Positions 3,538-31,205 of a DNA stretch of 33,991 nt are shown here, in pieces. This DNA is from an uncultured Ruminococcus sp. (lineage in GTDB: Bacteria > Bacillota > Clostridia > Oscillospirales > Acutalibacteraceae), in the NCBI GenBank assembly GCA_902797065.1, contig CADBRK010000085.1:1-33991 (forward strand). The letters are read 5' to 3'. Position 1 is the first letter of the stretch. Every line of letters starts with the position of its first letter. A program made the position numbers and the translations under genes. The notes below the pieces were generated by a model. It did not search any database. It was given only the letters and a program-made list of their open reading frames with translations, and was not told the origin of the DNA.

Positions 3538-3819
3538 ATGAATAAGAGCGAATTGATCTCTGTAGTTGCAGAGAAGAACGACATTACCAAGAAGGACGCA
3601 GAGAAGATCGTAACGATGGTTTTCGATACTATCGTAGACGCAGTTAAAGAAGGAGAGAAGGTTTCTATCGTAGGTTTCGGTACATTCGAGCAGAAGATCC
3701 GCAAGGAGAGAACAGGTGTTGACCCGAGATCACACGAGTCGATCACAATTCCCGAGGCAAAAGTTCCGTCATTCAAGGCAGGCAAGGCTTTCAAGGAGAT
3801 CGTTGACGGCAAAGAGTAA
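3538..3819 (+). CDS. hup: HU family DNA-binding protein.
   Basis: The 93-aa product reads MNKSELI...GFGTFE...R.GR/VDP...I.IP....P.FKAGK.FK, a typical HU sequence. GGAGGA RBS is present. Confidence 0.95.
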   Translation: MNKSELISVVAEKNDITKKDAEKIVTMVFDTIVDAVKEGEKVSIVGFGTFEQKIRKERTGVDPRSHESITIPEAKVPSFKAGKAFKEIVDGKE

Positions 3820-3824
3820 TAACA

Positions 3825-3990
3825 AACGTCGATGTCCCCCGCCTCTTTAGGCGGCGGGTTCCATACGTATGTCGGTGGCGGGTTTAAATCCCCCGCCGAC
3901 GTACGCAGGAGCTAAAGCTCCCCGACGTTTGCCTAAGTCGTCGCTCGCTCCAATCAAGCGAGCTTGTTGGAGCTTAGCTCCTTGTTTAAT
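3825..3990 (+). other. GC-rich multi-hairpin element in the hup 3' region (structured 3' UTR, unclassified ncRNA or REP-like element).
   Basis: Hairpins are present at 3838-3858, 3866-3905, 3908-3921, 3943-3962 and 3969-3981. A possible closing helix pairs AACGTCG (3825-3831) with CGACGTT (3923-3929). Confidence 0.5.
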
Positions 3991-4047: not shown

Positions 4048-4290
4048 ATGAGACTTGACAAATTTCTGAAGGTATCGAGAATTATCAAACGCAGAACGGT
4101 AGCGAATGAAGCTTGCGACGCAGGCAGAGTTCTTGTGAACGATAAGCCCGAACGCGCGTCGTACACCGTAAAGGTGGGGGATATTATCGAGGTGCAGCTC
4201 GGCACAAAGCCTTTCAAAGCAGAGGTGCTGAGCATTAACGAGTATGCAAAGAAGGACGAAGCGCCCATGATGTACAGAGTCATCGGGTGA
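4048..4290 (+). CDS. yabO: S4-domain RNA-binding protein (YabO/Hsp15-like).
   Basis: The 80-aa product starts MRLDKFLKVSRIIKRRT.A...C..G.V.VN, an S4 motif. Its position after mazG/hup matches yabO synteny. Confidence 0.85.
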   Translation: MRLDKFLKVSRIIKRRTVANEACDAGRVLVNDKPERASYTVKVGDIIEVQLGTKPFKAEVLSINEYAKKDEAPMMYRVIG

Positions 4291-4321
4291 TGACAGGGCA
4301 GAATAATCGAAATATATTATG

Positions 4322-4354
4322 GCGGCAGCGGCTTTTTCCGATGCCGCTTGTTTG
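4322..4354 (+). terminator. Probable intrinsic terminator.
   Basis: Stem GCGGCA (4322-4327) / TGCCGC (4342-4347) is followed by TTGTTTG. The stem is short and the loop is large. Confidence 0.45.
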
Positions 4355-4488
4355 CATAATAATGAAGGAGTCTGAGGTCAGCCGAAATACAAGCGGATAT
4401 GTCGGGCAAAGCAAAACGTAAGGATAAAATGAATTATCTGTGCAGCTTTCCCTGCTTATTTACCCGCTGCTTTTCTTTTGCCCGATAA

Positions 4489-4517
4489 TTGACAAAAGAT
4501 TTGCCTTGTGCTAAGAT
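4489..4517 (+). promoter_or_regulatory. Sigma-A-type promoter for the paralog array.
   Basis: TTGACA (4489-4494), a 17-nt spacer ending in TGc, then TAAGAT (4512-4517). It lies about 35 nt upstream of the ATG at 4552. Confidence 0.55.
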
Positions 4518-4551
4518 AATACTAAAAAACGGGAAATCGGAAGGTGTTTTT

Positions 4552-5175
4552 ATGGAAAAGATAAAGAAGTATTGTCTGCCGAGTAAGGCGGGCGGTATTA
4601 TTACAGGTGTGGTATTTTTGGCGGCGGCGGTTTTTATTCTCTGGGCTGAATTCGTTTCAGGTCACACTTTGGGCATGGGCAGGATAGGCGCATGTCTGTT
4701 GTCTTTGGTCTTGATTGTGATTGCGTTTATGATGTATTATGCCATATACGGCAGCGCTGCGTCGAAGTATAAGAAAAGGATAGCGTATTTCGGAAGCCTC
4801 GGCGTGGCAGGGGCATTGGTACCGGATTTCAACAGAGGTGTACGCCTGTTTGGAGGAAAGCTTGTTGCGGGTGAGAATTTCCTTTTCGGCAAAGGCGAGG
4901 GCATGATAGTCATGTATCGTGAGATTAACTCTCTGCGCAGGAATGAGCACAGAACCGATTACACCTCGGGCAATCTGCCGACATTCAGGTACAGCTTGAT
5001 TCTCACAGCCGGGGGTAAGGACTATACTCTCTGTAAACTCTCACGGGAAGACGTACTTTCTCCGGAGTGGTATCAGTTCAGCGCGTTTCTCTCGCTGAAA
5101 AACCCGGCTATTCGGGTGAACCAGATCATTTCTCAGACACACAGCACGATCGATGATTCGTCGGAAGATGATTGA
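4552..5175 (+). CDS. Paralog 1 of a 2-TM membrane protein family of unknown function (N-terminal K-K-[YF]-C-x-P-S motif, TM hairpin, about 140-aa cytoplasmic domain, acidic C-terminal tail).
   Basis: ATG 4552 has a GGAAGGTG RBS and aligns with the starts of the paralogs (MEKIKKYCLPS). It shares the motifs LV.G.NFLFG...GM.VMY.EI, NEHRTDYTSG, YTLC, EWYQF, LKNP and DDSSEDD. Confidence 0.8.
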   Translation: MEKIKKYCLPSKAGGIITGVVFLAAAVFILWAEFVSGHTLGMGRIGACLLSLVLIVIAFMMYYAIYGSAASKYKKRIAYFGSLGVAGALVPDFNRGVRLFGGKLVAGENFLFGKGEGMIVMYREINSLRRNEHRTDYTSGNLPTFRYSLILTAGGKDYTLCKLSREDVLSPEWYQFSAFLSLKNPAIRVNQIISQTHSTIDDSSEDD

Positions 5176-5193
5176 TCGAGGGGAGGTCTTTCT

Positions 5194-5823
5194 ATGAAAA
5201 AAGTAAAAAAGTTCTGCGTGCCGAGTGTTGTTCCTGCGGTGATCGTATCATGTTTGATAATTTTCGTCGGCGCAGCAGCGTGCCGGTTTGCAATTACTTC
5301 CAGAATCGCAAATATTTATTATAAATTGGGCGGCGTCGGCTTTTTAATCGCTATGCTTTTTGCGGCACGCTTTATGTTTAAAGAAATGTATCAATGCTAT
5401 GCGATTTTGTTCAAAAAACGGCTGGAGTATTTCAGAAAGATCGGTGTTATATCTCAGGTTGCGCCCGATTTTGAACAGGGAGTACGCATATTCGGCAAAA
5501 ACCTTGTCGTCGGGAAGAACTTCCTTTTCGGACGAGAAAACGGTATGGTCGTCATGTACAGCGAGATAGATGTTCTGTACAGGCATGAACATAAGACGGA
5601 CTATGAATCAGGCGCTCGACCTTTGTACAGCTTTTATGTCAAGTTCATGTCGCGCGGTGAGGAGTACACTTTGTGCAGCCTTGATCATCGTCAAGCAATT
5701 TCAGACGAGTGGGTTAAGTTATGCGAACTGGCTTCGCTCAAAAACCCAAATATCCGCATCAGACGGGATTTTCAGAAGTCCCGCAGCGTTAAAGACGATA
5801 CAGTCCCGATTGATGATGATTGA
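5194..5823 (+). CDS. Paralog 2 of the same 2-TM family.
   Basis: There is an 18-nt gap after paralog 1 and a GGGGAGG RBS. The 209-aa product shares the motifs listed for paralog 1. Confidence 0.85.
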   Translation: MKKVKKFCVPSVVPAVIVSCLIIFVGAAACRFAITSRIANIYYKLGGVGFLIAMLFAARFMFKEMYQCYAILFKKRLEYFRKIGVISQVAPDFEQGVRIFGKNLVVGKNFLFGRENGMVVMYSEIDVLYRHEHKTDYESGARPLYSFYVKFMSRGEEYTLCSLDHRQAISDEWVKLCELASLKNPNIRIRRDFQKSRSVKDDTVPIDDD

Positions 5824-5841
5824 TCGCAGGGAGGTATTCTT

Positions 5842-6468
5842 ATGAAAAAAGTAAGAAGATTCTGTATGCCGAGTGCCGTTCCGGCGGCGATAGCTTCGTC
5901 TCTTATTTTTGCGGTCGGTGCGGTTGTGTTCTTGTTTACAATGATTTCCGAAAACTCAAATATTTATATCAAACTGTTCGGCGGTGCTTTTTGTATCGGC
6001 ATGTTTTTTGCCGCGCGCGCTTTGTTTAAAGAGCTTTATCTTAACTATGCGGCTATGTTCAAAAAGCGGCTGGAGTATTTTAAACAGATCGGCGTTTTCC
6101 CGATGGTTGCGCCCGATTTTGAACAGGGGGTACGCTGGTTCGGCAAAAACTTAGTCGTCGGGAAGAACTTCCTTTTCGGACGAGAAAACGGTATGATCGT
6201 AATGTACGGCGAGATAGATCAGCTTTTCAGGAACGAACACCGAACTGATTACACATCGGGTGACAGCCCGTCTTTCGATTATTATCTCAAGATGGTTGCA
6301 AACGGGAAGGAGTATACCATTTGCAGCCTGAAAAAGCAGAATCTTAATTCAGATGAATGGTATCAGTTCTGCAATTTTCTCTCTATAAAAAATCCGAATG
6401 CTCATATAAGCCAGTATTTCCAGCAGACGCAGAGCCTTGTCGATGATTCTTCGTCAGGCGATGATTAA
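5842..6468 (+). CDS. Paralog 3 of the same 2-TM family.
   Basis: There is an 18-nt gap after paralog 2 with a near-identical junction (TGATTGATCg.agggagg). The product is 208 aa and shares long identical nucleotide tracts with paralog 2. Confidence 0.85.
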   Translation: MKKVRRFCMPSAVPAAIASSLIFAVGAVVFLFTMISENSNIYIKLFGGAFCIGMFFAARALFKELYLNYAAMFKKRLEYFKQIGVFPMVAPDFEQGVRWFGKNLVVGKNFLFGRENGMIVMYGEIDQLFRNEHRTDYTSGDSPSFDYYLKMVANGKEYTICSLKKQNLNSDEWYQFCNFLSIKNPNAHISQYFQQTQSLVDDSSSGDD

Positions 6469-6587
6469 ACTTTGCGGCCACGCGGCCGCAGGCAGATTCC
6501 GTCCGGGTGTAATGTAAACGAAAGACATTTCCGCATGGATGATTTTTATCAGACCATGATTAAATTTTTTTATTGGAGGAAAAAATA

Positions 6588-7204
6588 ATGTTCGGGATAA
6601 AGAGATATTGTCTGCCGTCAATCATACCGATGATCCTTGTTATGATGATAGGCATTCTGTTTGATACACTGCTTATGATCGGTATTATCAATACCGAGCC
6701 TGTATGGATCAAGTTAGTGACGCTGGTTTTTTTCTTGGGTATCCTTGCGGCTTTTGCAGTTATCGCATGGAGAATGTATATCAGGTATGCGTATTGCTGA
6801 GAAAGAGGCGTAAACACTACGCAAAAACGGAAATGACAGAGTTGATGAAAAGTGATTTCAAATCGGCAGAACACAGATTTAAAAAGAATTTAAAAACCGG
6901 CAAAAGCTTTATTTTCGGAAAATCAAACGGTAATCTTCTAAGATACAGCGATATAGACATACTGTACCGCAACTTGCTTGAAACAACATACACTTACAGC
7001 AACAGAGTAACCTATACATATTCTATCAAGGTCGTGTCAAGCAGAGATGAGTCCGAGCTGTGTATAATACCAAATGATATGGCAGAGTCGGACGAATGGT
7101 ACAAATTGTGTGACTTTCTCGCCGAAATTTGCCCGACTATAGAAGTCCGTCAGGAAATAGTCAGGACTTTCAAATTTGTTGATGATTCACCGAGCAAGGA
7201 TTGA
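6588..7204 (+). pseudogene. Paralog 4 of the 2-TM family, disrupted by a 1-nt frameshift near 6790-6800.
   Basis: ATG 6588 (RBS GGAGGA) encodes MFGIKRYCLPS plus two TM helices and stops at 6800. The homologous C-terminal domain (LLRKRRKHY...FIFGKSNG...SDEWYKLC...VDDSPSKD) continues in another frame to 7204. Confidence 0.7.
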
Positions 7205-7276
7205 TAGTGCTTAGAAGCAGAGTACAAACAAATGTTTGATTTTTTTATTTAAACTACATTTTTTGTACAGTCACAT

Positions 7277-7307
7277 AAAAGGGAGAGGTCGGAAAATGAC
7301 CTCTCTC
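7277..7307 (-). terminator. Rho-independent terminator of the GHL10 gene.
   Basis: Stem GAGAGGTC (7283-7290) / GACCTCTC (7298-7305) with a T-run on the minus strand (AAAA at 7277-7280 on the plus strand). Confidence 0.75.
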
Positions 7308-7312
7308 TGCGC

Positions 7313-10038: not shown

Positions 10039-11568
10039 ATGAAAAGAATACTGTCTGCATTTAAGCGATTTTATAACCCGCCGAAGCACCCCGACCGCAA
10101 AACAAAACCTATCCCGATAAGCGATGATCTTCGGACGAATATTGAAACGCTGAAAGAATTATTCGACAATTCAAGCGACCTTACGATAAAAGAGATCGCT
10201 CTGAAAGCCGGAGATCGTGAGACGAGAATTGCAGTCGTCACGATGGAAGGGCTTGTCGATAAAGAAACTCTCGCCGCAAGCATAACGAACCCCATTTCAA
10301 ATTATATCGGGATAACCGCCGATCATGATGATATTACAACTCTGCTTGAAAACGACGTTATCACGTGCAGCGACCATACCGAAGTAACCGACCTTTCGGA
10401 GCTGTCAAAGCTCGTTATGTCCGGCTTTGCGGCAGTGCTGCCCGACGGAGCAAATAAAGCCGTTGCAGTCGGCGTGCAGGGGTTTGCGTACAGGGGAGTT
10501 GAAGAACCCGATACGGAATCGGTGCAGCGAGGTTCGAGAGAGGGTTTCGTCGAACCGCTGCGGATAAACATCTCGATGATACGCCGCAGGCTAAAAACGC
10601 CCATGCTGAAATTCGAGACAATGACTCTGGGATATACGTCAAACACCGACATATGTATTTGTTATCTGAGGAATGCCGTATCCGACGAGATACTCGACAC
10701 GCTCAGAACACGATTGAAGAAAGTCGATCTGAACACGCTGTTTGCGTCGGGTTATCTGCTGTCTTATATCGACGACGACGGCGACAATACCATGTTCCCG
10801 ACGGTTGGTGTGACCGAACGACCCGACACCGCCTGCGCCAAACTCTGTGAGGGGCGTATAGTTATAATTGTAGACGGCACTCCGAGCGTATTGTATGTGC
10901 CGCATCTTATGACCGAAAATTTCCACACCTTTGACGATTACACAAACAGACCGTTCTTCTCTACAATAGCCCGTCTGCTTAAATATCTGTCGTTTTTCAC
11001 GGCGATACTTCTTCCGGCGGTGTATGTTGCGTTTGCGTCGTACAATCCCGAATTCTTCCCGGCGCAGCTGCTGACGAAGGTTTCCGGGGCGGTATCGCAC
11101 ACGCCGTTTTCGATCTTCTCCGAGGTGCTGCTGTTTACATTCATATACGAGATCATGCGTGAGGCGGGGCTGCGGCTTCCGAAAACTCTCGGGCATGCGG
11201 TGAGTATTATCGGCGGTCTTGTCATCGGCGACACTGCAGTTAATTCGGGGTTTATCGGTGCGCCTACTCTTATGATCGTTGCGCTGACGGTGATATGCTC
11301 GTATATCATACCCGATCTGTACGCGTCCGTTGCGATACTCAGAGTGTTGTTTATAATTGCGGCTGGTGCGTTCGGCATATGGGGCGTTGTGATTCTGCTG
11401 TGTATGCTGCTGACGTACCTGTCGTCGAAATCAAGCTTCGGAATACCGTTTTTTGCGCCTGTATCGCCGTTCGGTCTGTTCGGTATGCGGGATACTGTCG
11501 TTCGGGCAAGCTGGAGTACGCTGTCAAGACGTAATATGAAGGTTCAGGAAATTGGTATTCAGGAATAA
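10039..11568 (+). CDS. Spore germinant receptor A subunit (GerAA/GerKA family).
   Basis: The 509-aa product has a soluble N-terminal domain plus a C-terminal multi-TM region typical of GerA-family A subunits. AGGAGG RBS is present. Confidence 0.88.
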   Translation: MKRILSAFKRFYNPPKHPDRKTKPIPISDDLRTNIETLKELFDNSSDLTIKEIALKAGDRETRIAVVTMEGLVDKETLAASITNPISNYIGITADHDDITTLLENDVITCSDHTEVTDLSELSKLVMSGFAAVLPDGANKAVAVGVQGFAYRGVEEPDTESVQRGSREGFVEPLRINISMIRRRLKTPMLKFETMTLGYTSNTDICICYLRNAVSDEILDTLRTRLKKVDLNTLFASGYLLSYIDDDGDNTMFPTVGVTERPDTACAKLCEGRIVIIVDGTPSVLYVPHLMTENFHTFDDYTNRPFFSTIARLLKYLSFFTAILLPAVYVAFASYNPEFFPAQLLTKVSGAVSHTPFSIFSEVLLFTFIYEIMREAGLRLPKTLGHAVSIIGGLVIGDTAVNSGFIGAPTLMIVALTVICSYIIPDLYASVAILRVLFIIAAGAFGIWGVVILLCMLLTYLSSKSSFGIPFFAPVSPFGLFGMRDTVVRASWSTLSRRNMKVQEIGIQE

Positions 11569-11581
11569 GGAGATCAGATAT

Positions 11582-13681
11582 ATGCTTCACAAAAACAATC
11601 CGACTTCTCTCGAATGGGTATGTATCCTGCTTTCGGGTTCGCTGTTCACTGCGCTGTCGTACTCTGTGTTTACCGCAGGGAGGATCAATATTCTGATATA
11701 CGCCGTATCGCAGGCTGCGGTTTTTATTTTTATGTTCTTGATTACGCTGCCGCTCAAACGCTATTTCGGGAAATTCGATAGCCCGATAGTATTACAGGCT
11801 AAATCGGGGAGTGCCGTTTTAAATGCGGTGTTGTCCGTTGTCTATTCGCTCTATTTTATGTACGCCGCTGCCGTGACGATAATTATCGGCGCAATATTCA
11901 TAAAAACGTATATCGACAATAATCTTCCCGTTACTCTGTTCGCCGTTCTGGTAGCCGTATGCGGTTATCTGTCTGCAAAGAGGGGAATAAACGGTATCGC
12001 AGGAAGTACGGTCATACTCACAATGCTGTCGGGCGCAGCCGTGCTGTTTGTTTTTATTTCGCTGATATTTCGTGCGGATATGCTGAACTTCTCGTATGTC
12101 TATTCGCTTGATTTTTCCGATATAAGCCGATCGGCGGTGTATTCGCTGTCGGGTGCGGTGCTGCTGCCGTGTGTGCTTATGTTCGGGAGAACCGCAGAAG
12201 AAAAACCGCACAAGGGCGTCAATATCTGGATAACACTGTCGTTTGCTTTGTGTATTTCGATAGCCGTAATGACATATGCCGTATCGGGCGAGTATTCAAA
12301 TTATACAAAGTTCCCGTTTTATACATCTGCGCAGCTGCTTGAGGCAGGTTCGTTCAAAAGGCTTGACGTGCTTTTCCTTATGCTGTGGGTGATAGGTATA
12401 TATATAAATATATCGGTGTTGCTTTCGTCGCTCAAAGAGGTTATGTATATGACGTATGAATCGGTAACGGCAAAAAGAGTATTTGTTGCAGGGGTGATAA
12501 CAGTGACGGCAGTTTCGGCAGTATCGTTCAAATACGATGAATTGAGAGATATTCTGCTCGATCACTTTTTTGTTACGCTGCTGATAATTCTGACAGTGTT
12601 TATACTGCCCGGGCTGTTCCTTGTCTTTAACAGACCACGCAGGAAAAAGCGTACTGCTGCGGCTGTGCTGGCACTATTGACTGTTCTTTCGTCGTTTGCG
12701 CTGTCGGGCTGCGGAAAAACCGAGATACAGGACAGACTTATCGTCAAGGGCATAGGCGTAGATAAAACTACAGACGGGTATGACGTCACGGTACAGTATA
12801 CAGATACATCTTCGGGCGAAGATAAGCAGGAAAACAGATGTTTTGCCGTGTCGGGCGCGAGTATAGCGGACGCTGTGGGGAAGATAAAGAACAGTATCGG
12901 TCTTGAACCGTTTTTCGGGCAGCTCAGCGCGGTAACGGTGGGTTACGATTCGGCGGAGGATATGGATATTGCCGCCGACTATTTCATGAGAAGATCGGAT
13001 GTGCGCCCTTCCGTTAAGCTGTATCTGAGCCGGACGACCGCCGGGGATATTCTGAGATTCGAGAAGGACGGCTCAGTCATGCCGATAGATACGCTGACGT
13101 CTATATCTCCCGAATTCTCGGTCAAAAGCAACGATTACACATTGTTAAGCTATATAAACGCACGTATCGACCCATGCAGGACTCCTGCCGTAACGGTGCT
13201 GAAATGCGCCGATACCATACGATTGGCGACCGTGGCGGTGTTCGGCTGTGAGGGCGTATATATGCTTGATGACGATAGCTTCACCGCATATAAGCTTCTG
13301 CACGGCAAGCTTGATGAAAGCGTTCTTTCGGCGCAAGGCGTTTCATGCCGTGTGGAGAAGTGCAGAAATCATATTTCCGTCGATTATAACGGCGGCGGGA
13401 TCGCTTTCTACACCGTCAGTGATCTGAATATCGTTATCTCGGAAAACGCCGGTCATCTGCACGATGATGAAGTCTGCGGCATTATTGAACGGTACCTCGA
13501 ACGTCTCGTTAATGATTCTGCGGAAACAATACTGAAAAATAATCGTGACGACGTCTTTGAGTTGGGGCGTCATTTGGTGAATTTTAACAGGAATAGCGAT
13601 AATGCGTATGAGGTGTACAGAGAATTATTATCCGACTGCGAAGTTAATGTTAACGTCAAATGCAAAATTGTTAATAATTAG
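11582..13681 (+). CDS. Fused germinant receptor B subunit (APC-like permease, about 10 TM) and C subunit (GerAC lipoprotein domain) in a single ORF.
   Basis: ATG 11582 has an AAGGAG RBS. The first roughly 350 aa are polytopic. The sequence then reads RRKKRTAAAVLALLTVLSSFALSGC (Cys codon 12710-12712), a lipoprotein signal with lipobox, followed by a GerAC-like IVKGIGVDK...YDVTVQ domain. Confidence 0.8.
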   Translation: MLHKNNPTSLEWVCILLSGSLFTALSYSVFTAGRINILIYAVSQAAVFIFMFLITLPLKRYFGKFDSPIVLQAKSGSAVLNAVLSVVYSLYFMYAAAVTIIIGAIFIKTYIDNNLPVTLFAVLVAVCGYLSAKRGINGIAGSTVILTMLSGAAVLFVFISLIFRADMLNFSYVYSLDFSDISRSAVYSLSGAVLLPCVLMFGRTAEEKPHKGVNIWITLSFALCISIAVMTYAVSGEYSNYTKFPFYTSAQLLEAGSFKRLDVLFLMLWVIGIYINISVLLSSLKEVMYMTYESVTAKRVFVAGVITVTAVSAVSFKYDELRDILLDHFFVTLLIILTVFILPGLFLVFNRPRRKKRTAAAVLALLTVLSSFALSGCGKTEIQDRLIVKGIGVDKTTDGYDVTVQYTDTSSGEDKQENRCFAVSGASIADAVGKIKNSIGLEPFFGQLSAVTVGYDSAEDMDIAADYFMRRSDVRPSVKLYLSRTTAGDILRFEKDGSVMPIDTLTSISPEFSVKSNDYTLLSYINARIDPCRTPAVTVLKCADTIRLATVAVFGCEGVYMLDDDSFTAYKLLHGKLDESVLSAQGVSCRVEKCRNHISVDYNGGGIAFYTVSDLNIVISENAGHLHDDEVCGIIERYLERLVNDSAETILKNNRDDVFELGRHLVNFNRNSDNAYEVYRELLSDCEVNVNVKCKIVNN

Positions 13682-30523: not shown

Positions 30524-30608
30524 AAGTCAATTTAAAGTGCGTTTTTAAGTTTTTTTAAAGGAATGTAATGTAAAATAAATACAGAGAGAAAAAGAGAGGG
30601 TGATACAC

Positions 30609-31205
30609 TTGAAAATACTGTTTGCCGTATCGGACAGAGATCTCCTGCATTCATACAGCAGGCTGCTCGAACTTGACGGCGCAGACGTATGCACATCGTT
30701 TGACGGTACACAAACGATAACGCTCATAGAGTCGCATAAGTTTGACGTTGCAGTGATCGGCGAAAGCTTACCGAGAGTCGAAAACAGCCGTATCCTCGGT
30801 ATGCTGTACGGCAAGGGCGTTCCGACGATCGTCATATCGGGCAAACGTGTGACGTCAAAAATGCTGTGCGGTTCTCAGATAGCTTGTTCATATCTTCCCG
30901 TACCGTTCCTGCCCGAAGAGATGAGATCGCTCATAAAAACGCTGCTTGAGAAAAAGCAGTCGGGCAAGGTGTTCAGGACAGGCGAAGTCAGCATAGATAC
31001 AAGCTGCTTTTCGATGGAGGGCGTCCGTGTAACAAACGAGGAGATAGATGTTCTCAGGGCAGTTTGCGAAGATACGCCGATAAATGTGAGATCGGAGAGC
31101 GTGTATATCAGCGCGCTTAACAGCAAGCTCGGCAGCCTTAACAAGCATTCAAGGATAAAATATATATTGGGAAAGGGCTATAGGTTGGTGAATAATAATG
31201 GATAA
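30609..31205 (+). CDS. OmpR/PhoB-type response regulator homolog with a degenerate receiver domain (no phospho-acceptor Asp).
   Basis: TTG 30609 lies 8 nt after GAGAGGG and gives MKILFAVSDRD. The position of the acceptor Asp reads FDVAVIGESLP. The conserved Lys position reads YLPVPF. The C-terminal winged-helix segment reads GKGYRLV. Confidence 0.8.
   Translation: MKILFAVSDRDLLHSYSRLLELDGADVCTSFDGTQTITLIESHKFDVAVIGESLPRVENSRILGMLYGKGVPTIVISGKRVTSKMLCGSQIACSYLPVPFLPEEMRSLIKTLLEKKQSGKVFRTGEVSIDTSCFSMEGVRVTNEEIDVLRAVCEDTPINVRSESVYISALNSKLGSLNKHSRIKYILGKGYRLVNNNG

Follow-up and report, generated by a model that had tools for sequence, protein, structure and literature searches.

The array examined here lies between positions 4,489 and 7,204 of a 33,991-nt stretch of DNA (GenBank contig CADBRK010000085.1, forward strand; hereafter the window, meaning the whole stretch analysed) from an uncultured Ruminococcus sp. 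It comprises three intact tandem genes for paralogous proteins with a two-helix membrane hairpin and a fourth, frameshifted copy. The locus is a chromosomal, lineage-specific operon under a conserved sigma-70-type promoter, with the following features:

4324-4352, forward strand: hairpin after yabO, a possible terminator parting yabO from the array, conserved (L002 51-1) in RUG080, an uncultured rumen Clostridiales metagenome-assembled genome
4489-4517, forward strand: sigma-70-type promoter, with -35 box TTGACA at 4489-4494, a 17-nt spacer ending in TGC, and -10 box TAAGAT at 4512-4517
4552-5175, forward strand: copy 1, 207 aa, intact, matching the family profile at E 9.6e-60
5194-5823, forward strand: copy 2, 209 aa, intact, 59% identical to copy 3
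5842-6468, forward strand: copy 3, 208 aa, intact, the template for the structure models
6538-6563, forward strand: 26-27 nt (GATGATT-TTTATCAGACCATGATTAA) in the gap from copy 3 to copy 4, possibly left over from the 3' end of a lost copy
6588-7204, forward strand: copy 4, a pseudogene in this strain; the intact allele encodes 205 aa
7280-7308, strand unassigned: strong hairpin between the array and the convergent GHL10 gene, likely a shared terminator; the whole of 7205-7312 folds with a z-score of -4.1

Copies 1-3 have in common a K[YF]C.PS N-terminus, two hydrophobic segments, a set of conserved blocks and an acidic DD tail, with Cys8 and His133 invariant among the three. Pairwise identities of 36-59% mark them as clear paralogues, and the single architecture described in the initial annotation is borne out for these genes. 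The gaps between copies 1, 2 and 3 measure exactly 18 nt each, as first reported, and every one of the three genes is preceded by a ribosome-binding site (GGAGG or GGAAGG). On sequence comparison, the level of identity between copies 2 and 3 points to a recent duplication. The GC fraction of copies 1-3 (~0.44-0.48) falls inside the local range, and that of the copy-4 region is lower (~0.40); horizontal acquisition of copies 1-3 was considered and dropped because of this local composition.

Copy 4 had been counted as a fourth gene, a part of the initial annotation that does not stand for this strain. Its 617 nt are not divisible by three: frame A runs for 70 codons to a TGA stop at 6798-6800, and the remainder lies in another frame. 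Addition of one base yields a 205-aa protein in register with the other copies. An intact 205-aa allele is present in another strain (L014 2544-3161), relative to which the window is missing one C near 6790; L014 carries TATGCCGTATTG at the indel site where the window carries TATGCGTATTG, and 13 other positions differ across the array. The identical frameshift recurs in L013, L015 and L017, independently assembled metagenome contigs that match the window at 2653/2653 nt. Because three independent contigs share it, the frameshift is a real 1-nt deletion and not an assembly error, and the frameshifted and intact alleles coexist in the population. Programmed frameshifting was rejected, since no slippery heptamer was seen by eye and the intact allele represents a simple 1-nt indel. 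Copy 4 is also much more diverged, with 24-32% identity to the other array proteins, those of related species included, and the NEHRTDY.SG and EYTLC blocks are absent from it. Upstream of it, the possible relic at 6538-6563 gives an alignment score of 27, against a mean of 15, a standard deviation of 2.2 and a maximum of 23 over 500 shuffles.

The array was compared with orthologous loci in RUG080 (L001, L002) and in a second species (L003-L006); a scan of species genomes returned one locus only, in RUG080. Taken by itself, the promoter's consensus match is not significant, with 14 promoter-like sites in the region against 9.5 expected. It carries weight because it is conserved at the orthologous loci of two related species: the -35 box, the spacing, the TG and the -10 box (TAAGAT or TAATAT) are all kept upstream of the orthologues in L002 and L003, supporting the earlier proposal that the array has a promoter of its own. 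In RUG080 and the second species, the gene directly ahead of the promoter is a cobW-family GTPase gene, whose stop codon the promoter overlaps. On the 3' side of the array, all three species carry a convergent GHL10 gene on the reverse strand and a gene for an RluD-type pseudouridine synthase. The number of copies between these flanks is one in RUG080, three in the second species, and three plus the frameshifted one in the window.

No cobW was detected in the window by tblastn, and the window keeps a 14-nt segment, GATAATTGACAAAA, that in RUG080 spans the last codons of cobW. We infer that the GHL10/RluD locus carried the array with its promoter ancestrally and that the left flank has been rearranged, such that a yabM, mazG, hup, yabO block now abuts the array. 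It is the retained end of cobW that argues for rearrangement of the flank and against insertion of the array. The initial annotation had the array inserted after yabO, in the place of yabP-yabQ-divIC, which the related genomes contradict, their promoter and array lying at the GHL10/RluD locus after cobW. The array copies have no Pfam match to YabP, YabQ or DivIC, and none of the three was found among the other window open reading frames (ORFs) scanned, small ORFs not having been scanned exhaustively.

Two non-coding elements on the forward strand flank yabO (4048-4290). The first, GC-rich, occupies 3815-3930 between hup (3538-3819) and yabO; its fold is a closed junction of three hairpins with a minimum free energy of -62.1 kcal/mol (z -7.2; 0/200 shuffles fold as well). 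It is ~74-80% identical to L002 3834-3731, on the opposite strand, upstream of an ABC exporter gene pair. Single copy in the window, it gave no Rfam match at E<=1 and no tRNA by ARAGORN, and could be an uncatalogued structured RNA or leader. The second, the post-yabO hairpin region at 4305-4355, is 88% identical to L002 51-1, which lies at the opposite end of RUG080's ABC exporter pair; the whole of 4315-4362 folds with a minimum free energy of -19.1 kcal/mol (z -2.6). The same two elements thus bracket yabO in the window and two ABC genes in RUG080.

Across the three species, the flanking proteins (GHL10, RluD, GerA and CobW) are 76-81% identical, and the array proteins reach a best cross-species identity of 40-51%. 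The nonsynonymous rate (dN) of copy 3 against RUG080 is 0.40, approximately threefold that of the flanking genes (0.12-0.13). Copies 2 and 3, the least saturated paralogue pair, give a synonymous rate (dS) of 0.95 with a dN/dS of 0.32, and dN/dS stays below 1 throughout. In comparisons with RUG080, substitutions accumulate in the membrane hairpin at ~1.6-2 times the rate of the domain that follows it. These substitution patterns indicate purifying but relaxed selection, accompanied by lineage-specific duplications and losses, and a birth-and-death mode of evolution for the array, at a chromosomal site that is itself conserved, is well supported.

Evolution of this kind bears on the initial annotation's proposal of an immunity, defence or receptor-decoy function, under which the paralogues would be an orphan array guarding the membrane against variants of a toxin, bacteriocin or phage and diversifying in an arms race. 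Tandem orphan immunity arrays such as DUF600/EsaG sit beside type VII secretion system toxins, and the present array resembles them in its tandem paralogues, varying copy number (1, 3 and 4 between species), fast divergence and decaying copies, seen here as the copy-4 frameshift allele beside its intact counterpart and the possible relic. Unlike those arrays, it is flanked by housekeeping genes at a locus conserved across species, and in the window, L002 and L003 none of its neighbours encodes a toxin, a secretion-system component, an integrase or a transposase. Four window proteins and four relatives matched no PADLOC or PHROGs model, those for defence or immunity included, and no tblastn match was obtained in 50,697 phage or 72,556 plasmid records. 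Also against this function are the local composition of copies 1-3 (with copy 4 as the low-GC exception), a predicted exposed loop of only ~7 residues with the conserved part in the cytoplasmic domain, the dN/dS values below 1, and relatives that are mostly single-copy. We regard an immunity or decoy role as unlikely: nothing found here links the array to phage defence or toxin immunity, and what weight the idea retains comes from the varying copy number, the rapid divergence and the pseudogene that segregates in the population.

The encoded module, ~205 aa in length, is composed of a short basic pre-membrane helix ([KR][YF]..PS), a membrane hairpin and an alpha/beta domain of ~135 aa. Over 55 family members, the N-tail has a lysine-plus-arginine count of 3.8, the loop joining the two helices (median length 7 aa) one of 0.76, and the 15-residue stretch that follows the second membrane helix one of 3.0. 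These counts support a predicted N-in/C-in hairpin with a cytoplasmic C-terminal domain, the orientation put forward in the initial annotation. Full-length copy 3 was modelled by AlphaFold2 with a predicted local distance difference test score (pLDDT) of 82.9; its domain, residues 70-208, modelled from a 62-sequence alignment, reached a pLDDT of 96.1 and a predicted template modelling score of 0.86. The domain model opens with two helices, which lead into seven strands (four short and three long); one more helix and a last long strand complete it.

Foldseek searches of the PDB with the full-length and domain models returned nothing at E<=1e-3; the best TM-score of the domain model was ~0.27, with no bacterial pleckstrin homology (bPH) entries listed. 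A search of BFVD gave one marginal and uninformative hit, to an uncharacterised jumbo-phage protein (E 2e-4, TM 0.43), and the family profile retrieved only membrane-helix noise from PDB sequences. These results bear on the likeness to bacterial PH-domain membrane proteins of the YdbS/YdbT or YcxB type that had been noted initially. The layout is the same as in YdbS/YdbT (bPH_2, PF03703), with a small beta-rich domain in the cytoplasm after a two-helix membrane hairpin; seven strands followed by a helix is an order compatible with a PH-like fold, and the insignificant full-length matches include the PH-like 4xuu (E 0.12) and 2q13 (E 1.4). However, no bPH or YcxB Pfam match appears even at E<=1, no PH protein is among the PDB sequences retrieved with the family profile, and the domain model, at a pLDDT of 96, has neither a PDB match at the threshold nor a listed bPH entry. 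With neither sequence nor structural similarity to YdbS/YdbT detectable, membership of this group is very unlikely.

Conservation over 60 sequences is concentrated at a small number of positions. G107 is present in 60/60 family sequences and position 161 is Cys in 48/60; [KR]6, [YF]7, D92, F93, K/R114, G117, E/D124, I125 and P185 are likewise conserved. Most of the conserved positions are Gly and hydrophobic residues, supplemented by D92, K/R114, E/D124 and C161, a pattern that looks structural or binding-related, and not catalytic.

None of the window copies matched a model in Pfam, NCBIfam, PHROGs or PADLOC. The initial annotation assigned the proteins to no named family, which holds for direct Pfam and NCBIfam matches of every copy, and no well-characterised housekeeping family emerged from the Pfam search. 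Word-indexed searches for homologues yielded only 3 and 7 proteins, so that an exhaustive hidden Markov model (HMM) search was needed to uncover the family. Using a five-sequence profile, this search recovered 325 representatives at E<=1e-3, of which 80 also pass E<=1e-10; almost all are 175-225 aa long and align over their full length. DUF6709 (PF20456), a Pfam family of uncharacterised Firmicutes membrane proteins, was matched by 13 of 60 aligned relatives, with a best score of 38.1 bits (P0030) and three relatives at or above the gathering threshold of 27 bits. No window copy matched PF20456, even at E<=1, and none reached the threshold.

The two groups are joined by profile comparison. In hhalign, the window clade (A6) aligned with the DUF6709-positive relatives (A8) at 99.8% and E 4e-28 over residues 67-189, and the DUF6709-positive relatives appeared in the HMM search at E ~1e-13. 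The relatives examined cover only ~positions 173-333 of the 339-position PF20456 model, its C-terminal half. Judged by these alignments, the window proteins are a divergent branch of a superfamily that includes DUF6709. Both have the homologous soluble domain, placed in the cytoplasm after a pre-membrane [KR][YF]..PS helix and a two-helix membrane hairpin; they also agree at conserved DF, G, G, E-I, LC and NP positions. The window clade differs in an additional C-terminal strand and acidic DD tail, in a Cys within the N-terminal motif, and in its tandem amplification. A universal single-copy gene of known function, which the initial annotation would have taken as refuting its reading, did not emerge: the relatives are mostly single-copy, but none has a known function.

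Nine more distant lineages carry one copy each. The neighbours of these relatives include spmAB with DAP dehydrogenase, ABC-F with trk genes, transposases, serS with a SleB-like hydrolase, a Ter-type biosynthetic cluster, and unknown genes. In the Ter-type case, a set of Ter-associated genes (ATPgrasp_Ter, StiP/PELOTA_1, PRTase_2/TRSP and C-C_Bond_Lyase; L023 5636-9817, reverse strand) lies convergent with the single-copy relative P0018. A cell-wall theme, drawn from GHL10, SleB-like, PG_binding, spmAB and DAP dehydrogenase genes, was dropped when three further contexts were found without such genes. A metagenome scan for relatives found nothing.

Neighbouring genes would also suggest that the proteins act in the spore envelope or cortex as sporulation or germination membrane proteins standing in for yabP-yabQ-divIC. 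The host looks like a spore former, with a gerA-type operon 2.8 kb downstream of the array in the window and in RUG080; a yabM, mazG, yabO block lies upstream, the adjacent GHL10 is of a glycoside-hydrolase-like family, and among the relatives one lies after spmA-spmB and another converges on the SleB-like hydrolase gene. Against this, the conserved promoter is of the vegetative sigma-70 type and matches none of sigma E, F, G or K, the adjacency to yabO is specific to the window species, the three further neighbourhoods are free of spore genes as well, and the proteins have no similarity to YabP, YabQ or DivIC. Such a role is quite improbable. Within the gerA-type operon, one 709-aa ORF (11552-13681, forward strand) combines a GerAB-type spore permease with the N- and C-terminal domains of GerAC; it follows a GerA gene (10039-11568) as a fused B-C germinant receptor subunit.

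Partnership with a CobW-type metallochaperone GTPase in zinc or other metal homeostasis is highly improbable. In two of the three species cobW is directly upstream, znuA and two ABC genes lie 2 kb downstream of the array in L003, Cys8 and His133 are invariant in copies 1-3, and Cys161 is a Cys in 48/60 family members. The array, however, has its own promoter overlapping the cobW stop codon, the window contains no cobW, none of the nine distant single-copy relatives (0/9) adjoins cobW, and no Zur-box-like palindrome was read by eye in the aligned promoters. A 308-aa gene upstream of the relative P0011, taken up as a candidate, is not cobW. Both the sporulation and the metal readings draw on neighbourhood only and fail across the family.

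Domain fusions give a different view of the module. P0092 consists of a Hanks Ser/Thr kinase followed by the hairpin and domain, P0097 of an FHA domain and the module, and P0138 of the complete module twice over in a single chain. In P0137 the module is preceded by a Pfam zinc ribbon; P0091 has a zinc-ribbon-like Cys motif read by eye, without a Pfam hit. The P0092 gene (L011 6001-7620) lies in a cluster (L011 328-8201) of two or three Hanks-kinase genes, an FHA protein and a PrsW-protease/FHA fusion, and its DUF6709-like hairpin and domain stand at the end of the kinase, the usual place of PASTA repeats. A further candidate, the TPR/CHAT protein P0134, proved to be a spurious repeat match.

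Our best reading, at a low confidence of roughly 0.4, is that the array encodes a module that is tethered to the membrane, oligomerises and serves in the cytoplasm as an adaptor or sensor. The module probably lacks enzymatic activity, given that its conserved residues show no catalytic constellation. An oligomeric state is suggested by the fusion of two whole modules in P0138, and the tandem paralogues may form mixed assemblies. In some lineages the module may be coupled to Ser/Thr-kinase and FHA phospho-signalling, as the P0092 kinase fusion within its kinase/FHA/PrsW-FHA cluster and the FHA fusion P0097 suggest.

Several observations weigh against this adaptor or sensor role. The fusions are rare, with ~5 examined among 150 listed proteins, and all are distant, at ~20% identity. 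The neighbours of the distant relatives have nothing in common and provide no functional anchor. No annotated homologue or experiment giving a function was found, and the literature collection searched contained no paper mentioning DUF6709 or PF20456. Fast divergence, variable copy number and a segregating pseudogene would fit a conflict-related role equally well. A more far-reaching proposal, possible but rather doubtful, is that the domain is a fold new to the PDB and, with its hairpin, forms a new kind of membrane-tethered signalling or adaptor module that Hanks kinases and FHA proteins have repeatedly captured, with mixed oligomers tuning the signal.

Elsewhere in the window, two forward-strand ORFs have no Pfam match, one of 159 aa (304-783), which ends in a zinc-ribbon-like CxxC...CxxC motif, and one of 201 aa (30600-31205).

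The locus represents a clean, small case of gene birth and death in a chromosomal operon whose promoter has been kept throughout. At present the family is uncharacterised and its host uncultured, and the practical gain goes no further than improved annotation and a structural-genomics target. If the module is a membrane-proximal signalling or adaptor unit, this would provide a function for several hundred clusters, comprising DUF6709 and its relatives, in gut and rumen Firmicutes, and would add a fold without a solved counterpart.

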